In this document: piece by piece, positions 13,020 through 55,893 of the stretch | How positions within the stretch are numbered: position 1 is the first letter of the stretch | Layout: every line of letters starts with the position of its first letter | Source of the DNA: Clostridia bacterium | GTDB taxonomy: Bacteria > Bacillota > Clostridia > Oscillospirales > CAG-272 | Assembly: GCA_017410065.1 (NCBI GenBank) | Contig: JAFQRL010000005.1 | Location: forward strand, 23,536-87,535 | DNA length: 64,000 bases | Direction of reading: 5' to 3' | Notes under the pieces: generated by a model | The model's database searches: none | What the model was told of the DNA's origin: nothing | The model's input: the letters and a program-made list of their open reading frames with translations, nothing else | Program-made: the position numbers and the translations under genes

Positions 13020-13192
13020 GTGATGTTTTTGCTTACGCAAAAGTGATGTTACTCACTTCGCTCATAATGATGTTGCTCCCTGCGGTCGCAATGATGTGAT
13101 GTTTGCCCACTGTGCCGCAGGCACACATCATTGCCGTAGGCTACATCATTAGGCGAAGCCGACATCACTTGCCCGTAAGGGCAAACATCATT
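13020..13192. repeat. Linker-plus-mini-hairpin array, family B
   Basis: TGATGT at 13021, 13044, 13068, 13092, 13097; its reverse complement ACATCA at 13125, 13143, 13162, 13185; short hairpins lie between most linkers. Confidence 0.85.
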
Positions 13193-13288
13193 CGGCGCAC
13201 CTGCTTTATTGCAGGTCGCCGTAGCCATCCCTTTCACTTTTCATATACATCATAAAGCGCACGCCTCTATCTGTAAAAAACAGCAAAG

Positions 13289-19692: not shown

Positions 19693-19971
19693 AATCACGG
19701 CTCCGCCGTGTATATCATCAGCCCTTTGGGCTGTATATTTGCTATTCGTCGGTCGTACACGCCGAATAACGCAAGATACCGTTAAAAACGGTATGCATCA
19801 CGGCGAAAGCCTTGTATATCATCAGCTCTTTGAGCTGTATATTTGCTATTCGTCGGTCGTACACGCCGAATAACGCAAGATACCGTTAAAAACGGTATGC
19901 ATCACGGCATAGCCGTGTATATCATCAAGGCGAAAGCCTTGTATATCATCAGCCGCAGGCTGTATGGAATC
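19693..19971. repeat. Linker-plus-mini-hairpin array, family A, with two 68-bp modules
   Basis: TGTATATCATCA linkers and seven hairpins; identical 68-bp modules at 19732-19799 and 19836-19903. Confidence 0.9.
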
Positions 19972-20135
19972 CGTGCAATCCTCCGTCCTTTTCTGCTCGT
20001 GCCCGAAGGTGCTGTAACTCGGCAAATCTCCTCAATTTCCCGTAAGCATTGCCAACTTTCTCCTCAAAATATCCCTTTATCCTTTCATCAAAACTATGCA
20101 ATATATCACCTTTTGCCTCTTACTAGCCTAAAGTT

Positions 20136-22817
20136 CTATGCGTTTTGGTCGCTTATCATTTGTGCATCATCGCGAACATTCGCTTTCTTCAAAAAGGCCT
20201 CGTTCCAACGGCGAACAACTCTGTTGCAAACAACATATTGCAAAGACTTGATTATTCTTGATGGATAATACATCTGATGATTATTAAGCAAATCAATATC
20301 AATCAAGGGTTGCTCTACTTTTTTATGAGCCATCTTCGTTGTTGATCCGTTAGATTGTAGCGTTTGTAATTCACCCAAACCCAAACTGATATTATAAGCT
20401 TCTTCTAAATCAGGACGATGTTTTTGTAACAGTTTTCCAACTGTTTTGTATACAGATCTCACTCCCATATACGGAGAATAATAAGGTGTTGCTTCACCGT
20501 TGAACGGATTCAAATAGATGTGCGAATAAAAATCTATATCAACAATACATCCGTGAATGTTTCCCACACCACCAAACCGTTTCACTTCATTAGCAATATC
20601 CTGCAATGCTCTTTGATAAGGTTCCAAAAACCGCTCTATCGCAGCACAGTAGCTCGGCAAGTTTTCGTAATAATACTCAATGTCTTGGTTATCCGCAACT
20701 CGTGTATATCCGCCCTCCAATATGTAAAGCTTTTCTTTACTACTTGGTTTAAATAAAAACATATAATATCCGAATCGTTTCAGCATATAAATAGATCCCT
20801 TTTGGTTGCAACCATAAGATAATATCCCTTTTGCGATATTAAATTCGCGATATTCGTTCGAGGAAATTAAATGTATGCCGTCCAAAAGGCTATCAAACAT
20901 CTCATATGAGTTGTCGATTGTGAAAGATTTCAAATTTAATTTTCTTGCTTTATAACCAATCTGGTTGTCAGCTAAAACAACTGCACCATCATCGTCAGTA
21001 TAGGCTTTATTTATATGGTCGTGCCCGCACACATATATCCAATTTTTATTGAGTAATTGACTCGTCCAATCTTTCGGTTGCATATGAGTAAGCACTACAA
21101 GGTTTTTATCCGATGCAACGGATGAAATCTTTTTATATAATTTCTCGAACCTTTTCGATAGATCGCGCTCACTCTCTCTTCTTGTTACAGCATCTTTATA
21201 TAAGCCACAAGTAGAGTTATAGCGTGAGTTAAGACCTGCAAATCCCGTTCCTCCAAATACTGCCAGACTGGACATTTTGATAGCTTCCCTGAGAACTTCA
21301 TTTGATATATTCAATAAATCGTTTTCAGTTAGAACAACATTATACACATTTTTATAGTGCAAAAAAAGCGAATTGTTTAAAAGAAATATTTTGTTCCGTG
21401 CGGAATATCTGACTTGATCAACGTGCTGATATTTTGTTACTATTTCGTCGATTGCAAGAGTGTTTCCTTCTTCATCATAGCAGTCCCAAAGCTCGTGGTT
21501 TCCTAGAGTGTAAATGATTTTTCCTCTCCACTTATTTGACAAATTTGATATAAAAATGTCCACCAGCTTTTTTGAACAAGCTACATCTCCCGCGATCATA
21601 AGTGTTGCAGTATTATCAGGGCAACTTGTAATAATTTCTTGCACCTTTTGATTTATACATTCTTCGAGTTCATCATCGGAAAGTTTAACGTCAAACAATT
21701 CAAACTGATGTTCTAGATGAATATCGGATATGTAATAAATCAATCTATTCGTTTCATCACTGTTTGAAAAATCATATGCTACCACAGAATTCGTGTCTAA
21801 TGCATCATTTGAATTTTGCGCTTCGGGCAAAGCGCAGCGTTCACGGTTGATAAAATTGCCTCTTTGGACCTTGGTCTCCAAATGCTTTATAGCTTTTTCG
21901 GAAAGACTTTTGTAATGTGCCTCCCCAAAATCCGGTTTACTGTTGCGAACTATATTATCCCAACGAATAATTGTATTAGCAGGAATATGCAGCATTAGTT
22001 TATTCAAGAAATCGGTGTTTTCCCTAATGGCAACGGGTATCGAACAAAAATCTTTAAAAGAAAATTTATCCGCTATTTTTTCGATAAAACCCAAACACAT
22101 ATTGAGGTTTTTATATTTTGATGGAATATATTGAAATGCATTTATGTTTTCTTTAAAAATCTGATTGCATTTTTCTTTGTTCAAAAAAGACTTTGGAATC
22201 ATTTTTAATGCCTCAAGATAAACAGAAATTGCAATGTCAACCAAATCAGAATTGACAAATTCCTCTGGAACAAATTCAATTGCTCTACCATCCAAACTCA
22301 CAGCCTTTTTGCATAATTTTTCGTTAATAAATTCTTTTGTCACAAATTTTAGACAGCAGGGTGTGTAAGCAACAGCCTCTTCAATCAACTCTTTGGTTAT
22401 TAATCTGCGCGGAATATGATTAATCGGGTGCGAATAAACATCATTAAATTTCTGTCTAACCGCAACAAAAGCAAGTTCTTCATCGATTAGACTTTTGTCA
22501 ACATATTCAATTGCTTTACCATTTTTCAAAACGGCGGTAAAACATACTTTTTTTGTTTTAAGTTTTTCTGGGATAAAACGAAGATCTGAAGCACTTCTTG
22601 AAACGACTATGCAACACAACTCCTCGGTTAAAAACCGGGTAGAAATGTGTTTAAACTCTACGCTATTTTCTGTAATGTATCTATGAACGTCTTCTGCCGT
22701 CTGTTCCAACTTTGGAATTATTTTTTTATTCGGACGGCGTTTGTTAATATATTCTTCTTCAAATTTTGAAATATGCACCGAAAGAGTATTTATAACAATA
22801 GAATTTTCGTTTTTCAT
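20136..22817 (-). CDS. AT-rich 893-aa protein: N-terminal DUF4116-like repeats, calcineurin-like metallophosphoesterase, unknown C-terminal domain
   Basis: Repeats such as AVSLDGRAIEFVPEEF; motifs ISDIHLE, IAGDV, LGNHE, LTH, CGHDH. Confidence 0.8.
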   Translation of the reverse strand: MKNENSIVINTLSVHISKFEEEYINKRRPNKKIIPKLEQTAEDVHRYITENSVEFKHISTRFLTEELCCIVVSRSASDLRFIPEKLKTKKVCFTAVLKNGKAIEYVDKSLIDEELAFVAVRQKFNDVYSHPINHIPRRLITKELIEEAVAYTPCCLKFVTKEFINEKLCKKAVSLDGRAIEFVPEEFVNSDLVDIAISVYLEALKMIPKSFLNKEKCNQIFKENINAFQYIPSKYKNLNMCLGFIEKIADKFSFKDFCSIPVAIRENTDFLNKLMLHIPANTIIRWDNIVRNSKPDFGEAHYKSLSEKAIKHLETKVQRGNFINRERCALPEAQNSNDALDTNSVVAYDFSNSDETNRLIYYISDIHLEHQFELFDVKLSDDELEECINQKVQEIITSCPDNTATLMIAGDVACSKKLVDIFISNLSNKWRGKIIYTLGNHELWDCYDEEGNTLAIDEIVTKYQHVDQVRYSARNKIFLLNNSLFLHYKNVYNVVLTENDLLNISNEVLREAIKMSSLAVFGGTGFAGLNSRYNSTCGLYKDAVTRRESERDLSKRFEKLYKKISSVASDKNLVVLTHMQPKDWTSQLLNKNWIYVCGHDHINKAYTDDDGAVVLADNQIGYKARKLNLKSFTIDNSYEMFDSLLDGIHLISSNEYREFNIAKGILSYGCNQKGSIYMLKRFGYYMFLFKPSSKEKLYILEGGYTRVADNQDIEYYYENLPSYCAAIERFLEPYQRALQDIANEVKRFGGVGNIHGCIVDIDFYSHIYLNPFNGEATPYYSPYMGVRSVYKTVGKLLQKHRPDLEEAYNISLGLGELQTLQSNGSTTKMAHKKVEQPLIDIDLLNNHQMYYPSRIIKSLQYVVCNRVVRRWNEAFLKKANVRDDAQMISDQNA

Positions 22818-26734: not shown

Positions 26735-26892
26735 GGTAGCGCAACTTTCGCTTCGCGAAAACTTCACTTGTGCAAAGCACAAACTTCACCTGCGCGTCAG
26801 CGCAACTTTTTGCTATTGCAAAAAACTTCACTGCAAAGCAACTTCACTTGTGCATAGCACAAACTTCACTTTCGCTTCGCGAAAACTTCACC
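26735..26892. repeat. Linker-plus-mini-hairpin array, family C
   Basis: ACTTCAC at 26761, 26783, 26825, 26841, 26863, 26885, separated by hairpins such as TTGTGC-AAA-GCACAA and TTTCGC-TTC-GCGAAA. Confidence 0.88.
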
Positions 26893-27045
26893 AAAAAAAG
26901 ACCCCGAAGCAAGAGAAAAAAACGCTTTTCCTTTTTCCTGCCTCAGGGTCTGTTTTCTATTCAGTTATAAATTTGGCTTTGCCAAGCGTTTAGATTTTGC
27001 TGTTCGCAAAAGCTATGAATTCGCAGAGCGAACGTTATGATATGA

Positions 27046-34558: not shown

Positions 34559-34685
34559 TAATCTGCGCATAGCGCAGTATGGAATCCGTGCTCTGCACGG
34601 TATGGCATCAGCCCCTTTTTGCGAGCGAGAAGCGAGCAAAATCAAGGCGCAAGCCTTGTATATCATCAGCCGCAGGCTGCATACT
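34559..34685. repeat. Family A array variant
   Basis: Linkers GTATGGAATC, GTATGGCATCA, TGTATATCATCA with hairpins TGCGC-ATA-GCGCA, CGTGC-TCT-GCACG, AGGC-GCAA-GCCT, GCC-GCA-GGC. Confidence 0.8.
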
Positions 34686-34897
34686 TGTCATCCTGAGCCT
34701 GTCGAAGTTTTGTGAGCGAGAAGCAAGCAAAACCGAGGAGCAAAGCGACGAAGGGATCTCGCCCGTCAACCCTCTCGGGATAAAGAAAACTAACGTCAAA
34801 TCAGCTTGCCGAGCTGCATCTATCCGTCCGAGATCCGACCGCGAGCGGTCGCCCTTCGGGTTTCGGCTTCGGGCTCCGCCCTCCGCTCAAGATGACA
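34686..34897. mobile_element. MITE-like palindromic element (family E), 212 bp
   Basis: Terminal inverted repeats TGTCATCCTGAG and CTCAAGATGACA; the right part recurs at 55596-55670. Confidence 0.65.
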
Positions 34898-35224
34898 GCG
34901 GACGGTGCGTACCTTGCAGGATAAACCAAACTAACTCCAAATATGATATTTTGACAATAATTATTTACATTTTCGCTCAAATTTCACATTTTTCACCTAC
35001 ATCCCCCCTTTTATCCATCTGCCGTTTTATTCTCTGATTTTTTCGTTTTTTCCATCTTTTTTCTCTTGTTTTTCCCTCGCGAATACCCGCAAAATTTGTA
35101 AAAAAATTTGGGCAAATTCATTCAGTTTTACAATTAGTATAAATTTGCGAATAAAAATGTTCACAAATGTGATTTATAATTATTTTAGGAAAGTTTTTAA
35201 ATCTATAAAAAAGAGAGAAAAAAG

Positions 35225-43241: not shown

Positions 43242-43270
43242 TTGACAAATAAAATATTTTATGCTATAAT
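43242..43270 (+). promoter_or_regulatory. SigmaA consensus promoter of pyrC
   Basis: TTGACA (43242-43247)-17 bp-TATAAT (43265-43270) with TG. Confidence 0.85.
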
Positions 43271-43330: not shown

Positions 43331-44572
43331 ATGAAGGCTATTCTTCGCGGTGCACAAATATATACTGACGGCACTATGAAAAAGTCCGATTTGCTTCTTG
43401 ACGGCACCTCCCTCTCCGTTTTTGAGGGTGACGTATCCGCCCCCTCCGCTATTCCCGTTTTTGATAATATAGCTGTTTTGCCCGGTTTTTGTGATGTTCA
43501 CGTACATCTCAGAGAGCCGGGTTTTTCTTATAAAGAGACCATCGGGACAGGCTCTCTTGCGGCGGCTCGCGGCGGCTACACCTGCGTGCTTTCTATGCCA
43601 AATCTTGCCCCGACTCCCGATACCGAGGAAAACCTGAAGGTCCAGCTTGATCTTATCGAAAGGGACGCGGTAATAAAGGTTATCCCCTACGGCACTATAA
43701 CCAAGGGTGAGGGCGGCTTGGAGCTTTCCGATATGGCGGCTATGAATGAGCAGGTTGCGGGCTATTCGGACGACGGCAGAGGTGTTCAGAGCGAGGAGAT
43801 GATGCTCCGCGCGATGGAGCTTGCGGCAAGCCTCGGCAAGCCCATAGTTGCTCATTGCGAGGATAATTCCCTGCTCCGCGGCGGCTATATTCACGATGGC
43901 GAATACGCAAGAGCTCACGGCCATAGAGGTATATGCTCCGAGAGCGAATGGGGTCCCATAAAAAGAGATATCGAGCTCGTGAAAAAGAGCGGCTGCTCCT
44001 ATCACGTCTGCCATATATCCACCAAGGAAAGCGTTGAGCTTATAAGGCGGGCAAAGGCGGAGGGCGTTGATATCACCTGTGAGACCGCCCCGCATTATAT
44101 TCTTCTTGACGATAGCTCAATGGAGGAGGATGCCCGCTTCAAAATGAATCCCCCCTTAAGAAGCGCGGAGGATAGACTCGCCATCCTTGAAGGAATTAAG
44201 GACGGCACGATAGACGCAATAGCCACAGACCACGCGCCCCACTCCGCCGAGGAAAAATCCCGCGGACTTGAAAAGAGCGCAATGGGCGTCGTCGGAATAG
44301 AAACGGCCTTCCCCCTTGTATACACCTATCTTGTAAAAACAGGCGTAATAACTATGGAGCGAGCAGTTGAGCTGCTGTCCATCTCCCCCCGCAGAAGATT
44401 CGGTATAACCTCGGACGTGGGCTTCTCAATCTGGAGGCTCGGCGAGAAAAAGCCCATCGACGCAAAGGACTTCCTCTCCAAGGGCAAAAGCACCCCCTTC
44501 CTCGGCACCCCCGTCGAGGCTGAATGTCTGCTCACCGTCTACGAAGGCAAAGCAGTATATTCTGCCCTCTAA
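43331..44572 (+). CDS. pyrC: Dihydroorotase
   Basis: DVHVHLREPG, MPNLAP, HVCHIST, KMNPPLR, ATDHAPH, NSPF-like STPFLG. Confidence 0.95.
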   Translation: MKAILRGAQIYTDGTMKKSDLLLDGTSLSVFEGDVSAPSAIPVFDNIAVLPGFCDVHVHLREPGFSYKETIGTGSLAAARGGYTCVLSMPNLAPTPDTEENLKVQLDLIERDAVIKVIPYGTITKGEGGLELSDMAAMNEQVAGYSDDGRGVQSEEMMLRAMELAASLGKPIVAHCEDNSLLRGGYIHDGEYARAHGHRGICSESEWGPIKRDIELVKKSGCSYHVCHISTKESVELIRRAKAEGVDITCETAPHYILLDDSSMEEDARFKMNPPLRSAEDRLAILEGIKDGTIDAIATDHAPHSAEEKSRGLEKSAMGVVGIETAFPLVYTYLVKTGVITMERAVELLSISPRRRFGITSDVGFSIWRLGEKKPIDAKDFLSKGKSTPFLGTPVEAECLLTVYEGKAVYSAL

Positions 44573-44888
44573 ATCGCGGCGCAGCCTTGCATATCACCAA
44601 CCTCGCAGAGGTTGTATATCATCAACACGCAAGTGTTGTATATCATCCGCCAACGGCGGTATATCATCAGCTCTCCGAGCTGTATATTTGCTATTCGTCG
44701 GTCGTACACGCCGAATAACGCAAGATACCGTTAAAAACGGTATGCATCAAGGCGAAAGCCTTGCATATCATCAACCTCAAAGAGGTTGTATATCACCAAC
44801 CTCGCAGAGGTTGCATATCATCAGCTCTCCGAGCTGCATATCATCACGGCACAGCCGTGTATATCACCAACCTCGCAGAGGTTGCATC
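44572..44888. repeat. Longest family A linker-plus-mini-hairpin array
   Basis: Eleven hairpins on TGYATATCAYCA linkers, plus one 68-bp module at 44681-44748. Confidence 0.92.
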
Positions 44889-44954
44889 CCCCTTCTGCGG
44901 CTTTTTTAAGAAAAGCAAAGAATTTTGAATTAATTAACACGGAGGAATATAAAA

Positions 44955-52169: not shown

Positions 52170-52202
52170 TCCAATCTGAACCAAATCCCACACCTACACA
52201 AA

Positions 52203-52390
52203 ACACAAATAATCAGCATTTTTTCAGATAATTTTGAGTTGAGAAGCCTCGCTCACCCAGCATCAACAGCTTTATAAAGCAACACAAAAAACACAAATAA
52301 GCAGCATTTTTCAGATAATTTTGAGTTGAGAAGCTTCGCCCACCCAGCATCAACAGCTTCATAAAGCAACACCAAAAACACAAATAAGCA
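52203..52390. repeat. Tandem ~87-bp duplication
   Basis: ACACAAATAA starts at 52203, 52291 and 52378; two nearly identical units. Confidence 0.88.
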
Positions 52391-52403
52391 GGTTTTTTCG
52401 ATG

Positions 52404-55204: not shown

Positions 55205-55465
55205 ATAAAAAGCCCCGAGCAATAATAGCTCGGGGCGAATAAATCCGCGGTGCCACCCGATTCGGGACAACGTCCCCTCATGTACTAAAGGGCAACGCCC
55301 CAACCATACATTGTGCAGATAACGGCTGCCTGCCGTCGAAGCCTACTCGCAAAGCTTTCGGTTCGCCCTCGAAAGTCCATTCACCAAAGCGCACTATACC
55401 GCAATCCCACCGCCTGCGGCTCTCTGTGTTAATAACACTATGGCTACTACTCTTTCTCATCGGTT
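55205..55465 (-). ncRNA. Trp-specific T-box riboswitch
   Basis: T-box GGGTGGCACCGCG (reverse complement of 55246-55258); terminator GCCCCGAGC...GCTCGGGGC-TTTTT; Stem I AGAGA and GGTGGGA elements; specifier GAA-TGG (TGG at 55377-55379). Confidence 0.92.
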
Positions 55466-55473
55466 ATGTGATG

Positions 55474-55502: not shown

Positions 55503-55595
55503 TACCTTTTTGAAAAATTTCCCGAAATCCCCCGAAAATTATTTTGGAAAATTCCCCGAATTTTCCTCTTGAAATATCCTCCAAAGCTTCGCTCT

Positions 55596-55670
55596 CCGTC
55601 CGAGATCCGACCGCCGGCGGTCGCCCTTCGGGTTTCGGCTTCGGGCTCCCGCCCTCCGCTCAAAATGACA
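55596..55670. repeat. Partial family E element (right end)
   Basis: Nearly identical to 34824-34897; ends GCTCAAAATGACA. Confidence 0.85.
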
Positions 55671-55697
55671 ACAGACGGAACGTGCCTCGTTTCTCAT

Positions 55698-55893
55698 AAT
55701 CAAGGCGCAAGCCTTGTATATCATCAGCTCTTTGAGCTGTATATCATCAAGGCGTAAGCCTTGTATATCATCAGCTCTTTGAGCTGTATATTTGCTATTC
55801 GTCGGTCGTACACGCCGAATAACGCAAGATACCGTTAAAAACGGTATGCATCGCGGCACAGCCGTGTATATCATCAGCCATTTGGGCTGCATC
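55698..55893. repeat. Family A array with one 68-bp module
   Basis: Six hairpins on TGTATATCATCA linkers; module at 55785-55852. Confidence 0.9.

Follow-up and report, generated by a model that had tools for sequence, protein, structure and literature searches.

The 64,000 nt stretch analysed here (the window; assembly GCA_017410065.1, contig JAFQRL010000005.1, positions 23,536 to 87,535) belongs to a Clostridia bacterium represented by a 2.37 Mb metagenome-assembled genome (MAG) of 47 contigs, with 48% GC and an estimated completeness of 96%. Between its pyrC and carB genes, positions 44573-44888 hold an array of 11 mini-hairpins set on a constant 12 nt linker, TGYATATCAYCA, of which there are 9 full copies. 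Read 5' to 3', the hairpins are CGGC-GCA-GCCT (imperfect, H0), ACCTC-GCA-GAGGT, ACAC-GCAA-GTGT, CGCC-AAC-GGCG and GCTC-TCC-GAGC, then, after a longer unit, AGGC-GAAA-GCCT, ACCTC-AAA-GAGGT, ACCTC-GCA-GAGGT, GCTC-TCC-GAGC, CGGC-ACA-GCCG and ACCTC-GCA-GAGGT, with ACCTC-GCA-GAGGT present three times and GCTC-TCC-GAGC twice. The final CA and initial TG of the linker pair with each other, extending every stem to 6-7 bp around a loop of 3-4 nt. A preliminary description of the locus had the sequence, the hairpin list and this extension of the stems right, and omitted the 69 bp long unit, in which the linker is split into its TGTATAT and CATCA halves by a 56 bp insert containing two larger hairpins. 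The window contains 23 matches to the linker where 2.5 are expected, none of the shuffled sequences reached 23, and the 24-25 bp period of the units is also detected by Tandem Repeats Finder. Folded as RNA, the array reaches -131 kcal/mol (z = -7.5).

Arrival and turnover at the pyrC-carB junction

The pyrC-carB junction was compared in 20 genomes of the same genus, with PyrC proteins 63-77% identical. In 19 of the 20 the spacer measures 1-45 nt and contains a ribosome-binding site alone; here it measures 382 nt, and just its last ~25 nt can be aligned to the junctions of the relatives. In a 96%-identical strain, represented by a public metagenome contig, the start of the array is present and exactly one 24 bp unit (44611-44634) is missing, while a metagenome contig from a more distant relative joins position 44562 to position 44941 with 17 other letters in between. 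Because Logan contigs of near-identical strains break within the arrays, recovery was limited to a single unit deletion and the empty site of one relative. These comparisons show that the array entered the junction recently, in this species lineage only, and that its units are gained and lost. The preliminary description had singled out these intervals as the place to look for gain or loss of units, as opposed to arrays fixed among relatives, and it is turnover that they contain. The remaining relative (genome G069, locus L149) carries an unrelated 444 nt repeat with a period of about 113 nt at its pyrC-carB junction, which seems to tolerate or attract insertions.

Inverting one end of the array, (A)ATCA..., does not give the other, ...TGYATC, and the two do not constitute the terminal inverted repeats of a miniature inverted-repeat transposable element. 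No target-site duplication is visible at TAA/ATCG and TGCATC/CCCC, a comparison in which the empty site comes from relatives of at most 77% protein identity and a short duplication is possible. Given the consensus promoter before pyrC and the failure to find a convincing terminator before carB, the array is probably inside the operon mRNA, with one promoter probably driving pyrC, the array and carB as a single transcript (Table 1). It is a recent passenger, and we infer that it has no dedicated role in pyrimidine synthesis. The idea that ACCTC-GCA-GAGGT is a PyrR-binding hairpin was dropped because the identical hairpin is present at unrelated loci.

Family A and its folding strand

About 20 arrays with the linker TGYATATCAYCA, which we call family A, occur in the genome, all of them intergenic and three of them in the window. 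Together they comprise about 85-90 units built from some eight stem types (GCTC, AGGC, CGGC, ACCTC, GCC, GCCC, ACAC, CGCC), and the stems follow a preferred order: AGGC is followed by GCTC nine times and GCTC by the long unit eight times, the long unit is mostly followed by CGGC, and ACAC by ACCTC. Because this order is not random, the arrays seem to descend from a single multi-unit ancestor, with later gains and losses of units; the small, reusable set of hairpins previously proposed does recur among the arrays, but it is not freely reshuffled. All 14 genomic copies of the long unit are 100% identical, whereas versions in six other species of the genus stand at 81-90% identity, indicating recent spread or homogenisation within each genome. 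Family A is a non-coding DNA repeat.

Loops and stems were counted in 305 distinct hairpins, pooled over this genome and 127 loci in others. The linker strand has 69 GNA loops against 5 TNC, 29 GNRA tetraloops against 1 of the complementary type, and 17 G.T mismatches inside stems against 5 A.C; the closing pair of the common hairpins, as read from the listed hairpins, is C-G. These asymmetries of loop and stem indicate that one particular strand, the linker strand with its cGNAg and cGNNAg loops, is selected to fold, in agreement with the earlier suggestion of a repeat system at the level of single-stranded DNA or RNA. GNYA tetraloops are nearly as numerous (24) as GNRA ones, and the rule is accordingly GNNA and not GNRA. 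Both cGNAg and cGNNAg are classic extra-stable DNA mini-hairpin motifs, and RNA thermodynamics favour GNRA over GNYA; the GNNA rule leans towards single-stranded DNA while leaving room for RNA. Folding with DNA parameters gave equal energies for the two strands, but the model has no GNA bonus and for that reason cannot reveal a strand asymmetry. Extraordinarily stable DNA mini-hairpins, d(GCGAAGC), cGNAg and cGNNAg, are reportedly due to the work of Hirao, Yoshizawa and Nakano, and the loops of the linker strand match them exactly, with a C-G closing pair; these are, however, physico-chemical motifs known from phage origins and promoters and not a repeat family.

All 14 one-directional arrays of this genome, spread over 9 contigs, have their linker on the C-rich strand, with absolute flank skews of 0.007-0.114. 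On the contig that carries dnaA, the plus-strand skew turns from negative to positive at dnaA, the leading strand being G-rich as usual, and this sign makes the folding (linker) strand the lagging strand, i.e. the leading-strand template. With respect to flanking genes the arrays are sense, antisense or between convergent genes without preference, and the tRNA genes of this genome have no such strand bias (11 vs 14). The same tendency, although weaker, appears in other genomes: in 78 of 110 loci (p = 1.4e-5), in 47 of the 61 loci with strong skew, and in one-directional arrays of three or more linkers, 22 against 8. The first two of these counts owe much to tRNA-linked copies, whose orientation could merely be that of the adjacent tRNA gene.

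Table 1. Features of the pyrC-carB region and sister arrays, in window coordinates
Feature	Coordinates	Strand	Domain matches
pyrC promoter, consensus sigma-70 TTGACA-17-TATAAT with TG, 5' of pyrC	43242..43270	+	
pyrC, dihydroorotase, 413 aa; TAA stop (44570-44572) abuts the array	43331..44572	+	PF01979, PF12890 (Amidohydro_1/DHOase)
Array left end: ATCG and imperfect hairpin H0 CGGC-GCA-GCCT; left ends of the family are (A)ATCA	44573..44587	+	
Four linker+hairpin units: L-ACCTC(GCA), L-ACAC(GCAA), L-CGCC(AAC), L-GCTC(TCC)	44588..44680	+	
69 bp long unit	44681..44749	+	
Hairpin AGGC(GAAA), then five linker+hairpin units: ACCTC(AAA), ACCTC(GCA), GCTC(TCC), CGGC(ACA), ACCTC(GCA)	44750..44882	+	
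Terminal half-linker TGCATC; usual right end of the family TGYATC	44883..44888	+	
Remainder of spacer, 66 nt; final ~25 nt are the carB ribosome-binding region TTAATTAACACGGAGGAATATAAAA	44889..44954	+	
carB, carbamoyl-phosphate synthase large subunit, 1058 aa	44955..48131	+	CPSase_L
Sister family-A array, two long units, antisense to flanking genes	19694..19965	+	
Sister family-A array, one long unit, antisense to flanking genes	55699..55890	+	

Home cassette, PF05635 genes and related repeats

Scanning one genome per species for three linkers in a row yielded more than 118 loci, nearly all labelled in their records as Acutalibacteraceae, Oscillospiraceae, Ruminococcus or unclassified Clostridia MAGs, many of them from ruminant gut. 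Among these loci, at least 64 arrays take the form of a conserved two-fold element. It runs through two to four forward units, a half-hairpin and three reverse units to a closing hairpin, GGATAAAAAA and a bidirectional terminator immediately adjoining a tRNA or transfer-messenger RNA (tmRNA) gene at its 3' end; the 3' half of the closing hairpin covaries with the half-hairpin. As a single strand the element folds into a rod with its forward and reverse linkers paired (-86.6 kcal/mol, z = -7.2). On the far side, a PF05635 gene of 114-119 aa is present in 9 of 34 loci (E = 1.7e-18). PF05635, named '23S rRNA intervening sequence protein', is a four-helix bundle and the family of Avd, a factor of diversity-generating retroelements (DGRs). 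In home copies the PF05635 gene has its own TATAAT box, and the terminal TGATT of the array is its likely -35 box; the ATTATA boxes 5' of home copies, considered as a promoter for a small RNA from the array, proved to be the TATAAT boxes of this divergent gene on the other strand, and that candidate was rejected. The ancestral home of family A is the two-fold head of a cassette bounded by a tRNA/tmRNA terminator on one side and an Avd-like PF05635 gene on the other. Where family-A two-fold elements stand behind tmRNA genes (loci L030 and L061), the far flank contains a hairpin resembling a T-arm, which may have been copied in part from the 3' end of the tmRNA.

The link to PF05635 extends beyond family A. 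Of 56 PF05635 genes sampled without bias from 41 relatives, 38 have at least five copies of some 7-mer, both strands counted, within 420 nt upstream, against 55 of 1798 when all genes of this genome serve as the comparison set (odds ratio 67, p = 1e-39); the 7-mer varies by gene (ATATCAY, ATTTCAY, ACTTCAY, ACATCAY, ATTACA, AATTCA, ATATCG and others). The version of the linker tracks the PF05635 tree, requiring 20 label changes where the minimum is 14 and shuffled labels give 43.6 (0 of 200 shuffles as low), and the proteins associated with family A form one supported clade of 10, clade A. Counted by genome, arrays of either family and PF05635 occur together in 24 cases, arrays only in 3, the gene only in 3 and neither in 11; the corresponding counts among 16 different families of the order Oscillospirales are 5, 2, 1 and 8. 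A phylum-wide sample contained almost no PF05635 gene with an upstream array, the association being confined to the order. Seven PF05635 genes in this genome fall into other clades, several of them directly behind Gut-1 or family-C arrays, and the genome, at 96% completeness, has no clade-A gene. Since it lacks the two-fold tRNA/PF05635 arrangement and its genome lacks a clade-A gene, the pyrC-carB array is a derivative and not the cassette itself.

Our search for a mobilising enzyme was negative throughout. The window contains no partner enzyme, as had been noted, and the genome has 0 matches to the REP-associated tyrosine transposase (RAYT) domain Y1_Tnp (PF01797), which was detected in control genomes, and no reverse transcriptase. 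No transposase family is enriched beside the arrays at 118 loci; the neighbours that recur there, spurious read-through open reading frames (ORFs) aside, are a helix-turn-helix protein (9 loci) and PF05635 only. Viral contigs account for only 9 loci, giving no sign of a phage vehicle. Nor did the array match any described family of repetitive extragenic palindromes (REP) or bacterial interspersed mosaic elements (BIME) with a known RAYT. The preliminary description had asked which genes the most regular arrays flank, naming RAYT first: it is absent, and PF05635 genes are what adjoin the home copies.

The nearest catalogued relative is the Rfam motif Gut-1 (RF01706), whose covariance model scores the array at 22.3 and 16.4 bits on the minus strand, under a gathering threshold of 50. 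Elsewhere in the genome 13 Gut-1 copies lie above threshold (51-78 bits) with the linker GUGAAAU, and the linker of the array, read on the opposite strand as AUGAUAU, differs from the GUGAAAU / GUGAUAU of Gut-1 at one or two of seven positions. Gut-1 was stated only as occurring in human gut sequence, with no function, partner gene or mobility described (Weinberg et al. 2010, PMC2864571); the published seed alignment already holds GUGAUAU/AUAUCAC members beside a tRNA and a terminator. Gut-1 and family A are both runs of short GC-rich hairpins on a constant linker in uncultured gut Clostridia, and the home copies of family A stand two-fold beside a tRNA terminator, as in Gut-1 seed sequences. 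Unlike Gut-1, family A has a 12 nt linker and the array is sub-threshold and one-directional, with up to 11 hairpins, in operon junctions and with the 69 bp long unit; the pyrC-carB copy is not behind a tRNA terminator and has no inverted partner half. The array is a sub-threshold sister of the catalogued but uncharacterised Gut-1 motif, and family A belongs within a Gut-1 superfamily of hairpin-and-linker arrays. The 'undescribed' REP-like system of the preliminary description stands as a REP/BIME-like, modular, non-coding repeat, and with a near relative in Rfam 'undescribed' was an overstatement.

Comparison with other systems gives partial likenesses. Like REP/BIME sequences, family A consists of extragenic, clustered palindromic units, often just 3' of stop codons, within operons and variable between strains, selected as single-strand hairpins; unlike them, it has no GTAG head, its linker is constant while its stems vary, the units of the pyrC-carB array and of 14 others are direct and not alternating (the two-fold arrangement is limited to tRNA-linked home copies), its units number under a hundred and not hundreds, and there is no RAYT. 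The intervening sequences of 23S rRNA with a PF05635 ('S23p') ORF, and the Avd of DGRs, recall the home copies of family A, which likewise combine a long two-fold hairpin by a stable-RNA gene with a PF05635 gene, but there the array is no part of the RNA gene and instead follows that gene's terminator, reverse transcriptase is missing from the genome, and the pyrC-carB array has no PF05635 gene nearby. A literature search for the linker strings returned unrelated primers only. At the Rfam gathering threshold the array is unmatched, the sole match in the whole window being a T-box leader (RF00230, 105 bits, 55228-55469, minus strand).

Several other repeats occur near family A or resemble it. 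A short array at window 34559-34680 has the variant junctions GTATGGAATC and GTATGGCATCA beside one standard linker, from which units can be seen to end in TGYAT and to begin with (A/C)ATCA, with a variable 2 nt joint. A repeat of ~100 nt (..CCGTCCGAGATCCGACCGC..GGTCGCCCTTCGGGTTTCGGCTTCGGGC..CCGCTCAAGATGACAGCGGACGG), without an Rfam match, adjoins family-A arrays at window 34806-34912 and 55580-55680 and on contigs C13 and C22, and the short repeat CCCTCCCTGTCATCCTGAGCCTGTCGAAG lies 3' of the right ends of several arrays (window 34680-34712; contigs C7, C24 and C44); the same intergenic sites seem to collect repeats of different families. Two further linker families are present in the window: a two-fold array at 13020-13200 (four copies of GTGATGTT followed by four of ACATCAT, the intervening hairpins being GC-rich), on a contig without a PF05635 gene, and a one-directional array at 26735-26900 with the linker AACTTCAC and hairpins such as TTGTGC-AAA-GCACAA, a linker also found 5' of a PF05635 gene elsewhere in the genome (C24:35190-35420). 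One genomic segment (C47:50381-51580, equal to L139 1882-3081) carries tRNA-Thr, tRNA-Tyr, a family-A two-fold array, a 107 aa ORF and a Gut-1 two-fold pair; the ORF between the two array families (L139 2305-2628) has no Pfam match. For the array at 19694-19965, four gut metagenomes give zero depth over the right flank (window 19980-20300), three of them covering the left flank at 99-100% identity; the boundary of a strain-variable region may lie at this array. An 87 bp tandem repeat (2.3 copies, 92% identity) lies at window 52196-52399.

Origin and maintenance of the arrays

The account we favour, and consider somewhat probable, treats the pyrC-carB array as a REP-like repeat of structured DNA, orphan and one-directional, which lengthens or shortens when replication slips at the linkers. 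It would be selfish or nearly neutral DNA, passively co-transcribed with pyrC and carB. Slipped-strand mispairing between identical 12 nt linkers would add and remove units with no enzyme needed; in the observed orientation the extra-stable mini-hairpins would arise on the newly made lagging strand, which would favour persistence and expansion, and in the opposite one on the lagging-strand template, which would favour deletion. For hairpin-forming repeats in E. coli, a stable hairpin on the lagging-strand template leads to deletions and one on the nascent lagging strand to duplications. By this analogy with the position of hairpins at the fork, arrays would persist or grow only in the orientation that is observed.

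This account must be tempered by several observations. Its mechanism of slippage and strand-dependent survival is carried over by analogy, and would leave two things unexplained: the arrival of arrays at new loci with identical long units, and the constancy of the 12 nt linker across the families of the order. The latter is the main argument for a sequence-specific reader, for which PF05635 is the sole candidate. Replication direction was taken from local skew in a MAG of 47 contigs. Single Gut-1 hits in this genome divide 11 to 11 with no skew bias, a count confounded by half-detected two-fold elements, and array size in other genomes is the same in both orientations. GNRA and UUCG-type loops, G.U pairs and one metatranscriptome contig with an array also fit a role as RNA.

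Two alternatives give the arrays a molecular partner or a function. In one, the linker would be an address read by an Avd-like PF05635 protein, and orphan arrays would be extra docking sites, decoys or non-autonomous derivatives maintained or moved in trans. Judged from comparisons of genomic sequence we hold this to be unlikely, even though upstream 7-mer arrays are strongly enriched at PF05635 genes, the linker version tracks the protein tree, the two co-occur by genome, and PF05635 paralogues within this one genome keep different linkers. The genome richest in family-A arrays has no clade-A PF05635 gene, the association is absent outside the order, PF05635 has no known enzymatic activity, and the signal in the tree could arise without binding, by shared descent of adjacent DNA. 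In the other, the array would be an RNA element acting in cis to stabilise, process or insulate the pyrC-carB transcript, as REP sequences do in some E. coli operons, or would titrate an RNA-binding factor. At this locus the array is in the sense direction, behind a promoter and with no convincing terminator ahead of carB, its RNA fold is very stable, the linker strand has the loops and G.U pairs just mentioned, and Rfam lists Gut-1 among small RNAs. Of the RNA runs examined, one lacked the organism and another yielded the single metatranscriptome contig, which is from a sister array, at low depth, and could be DNA carry-over, however; arrays of the family are sense, antisense or between convergent genes in roughly equal shares, their orientation following replication and not transcription; their GNNA tetraloops are closer to the DNA motifs than to RNA tetraloop rules; 19 of the 20 relatives have a working operon that lacks the array; and those family-A home copies that were inspected sit between a terminator and the next promoter. 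An RNA role, conceivable for this sense copy but disfavoured for the family, is quite improbable in our estimation.

The remaining alternatives are classes of known repeat. A classical REP/BIME moved by a RAYT (an HUH Y1 enzyme) or by an IS200/IS605-type TnpA acting on single-stranded hairpins has little to recommend it beyond resemblance: clustered extragenic palindromes, single-strand selection and replication-strand bias are all reminiscent of HUH-mobilised elements, but a genome of this completeness yields no Y1_Tnp match with a search that detects the controls, the arrays have no GTAG-type head and no enriched transposase, and the strand that folds in them is the leading-strand template, whereas IS608-type elements would be expected to fold on the other one. 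We regard this as very improbable. There is next to no chance that the array is a degenerate or miniature CRISPR-like array. The layout of repeats and spacers with a 23-25 bp period is indeed similar, as was pointed out earlier together with the palindromic, recurrent nature of the spacers, and it is this anatomy that refutes the comparison: the constant part is only 12 nt, versus identical repeats of 23-50 nt, and the 'spacers' are palindromes of 9-13 nt that recur within and between arrays and are not unique. The array is flanked by two biosynthetic genes with nothing cas-sized beside it, the search for cas genes having gone no wider.

Slippage in an orphan repeat, our preferred account, describes the pyrC-carB array; for the superfamily as a whole a broader proposal can be made tentatively from the same sequence evidence. 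It is conceivable, if on balance doubtful, that hairpin arrays and Avd-like PF05635 proteins form an unrecognised protein-nucleic-acid system of gut Clostridia, in which each protein clade would read its own 7-12 nt linker, presented between stable hairpins of a single strand. Array and protein would travel together as a cassette inserting behind tRNA/tmRNA genes, and orphan arrays would be non-autonomous offshoots, seeded and expanded on single-stranded DNA at the replication fork. If true, such a system would account for both the strand bias of 14 out of 14 arrays and the identical long units.

Gut-1 has been in Rfam since 2010 without function or context, and can now be seen as one face of a large hairpin-and-linker superfamily whose preferred home is beside stable-RNA genes and the orphan family PF05635, which includes Avd. 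At least one family of this superfamily can break loose and spread in a REP-like manner, without a known transposase and with a strict replication-strand bias. For annotation, this means that arrays of this kind inside operons are recent passengers and not conserved regulators, and that they also break short-read assemblies. More broadly, the arrays offer testable handles on two orphans, Gut-1 and the stand-alone PF05635 proteins, and on the growth of structured repeats that have no enzyme of their own.

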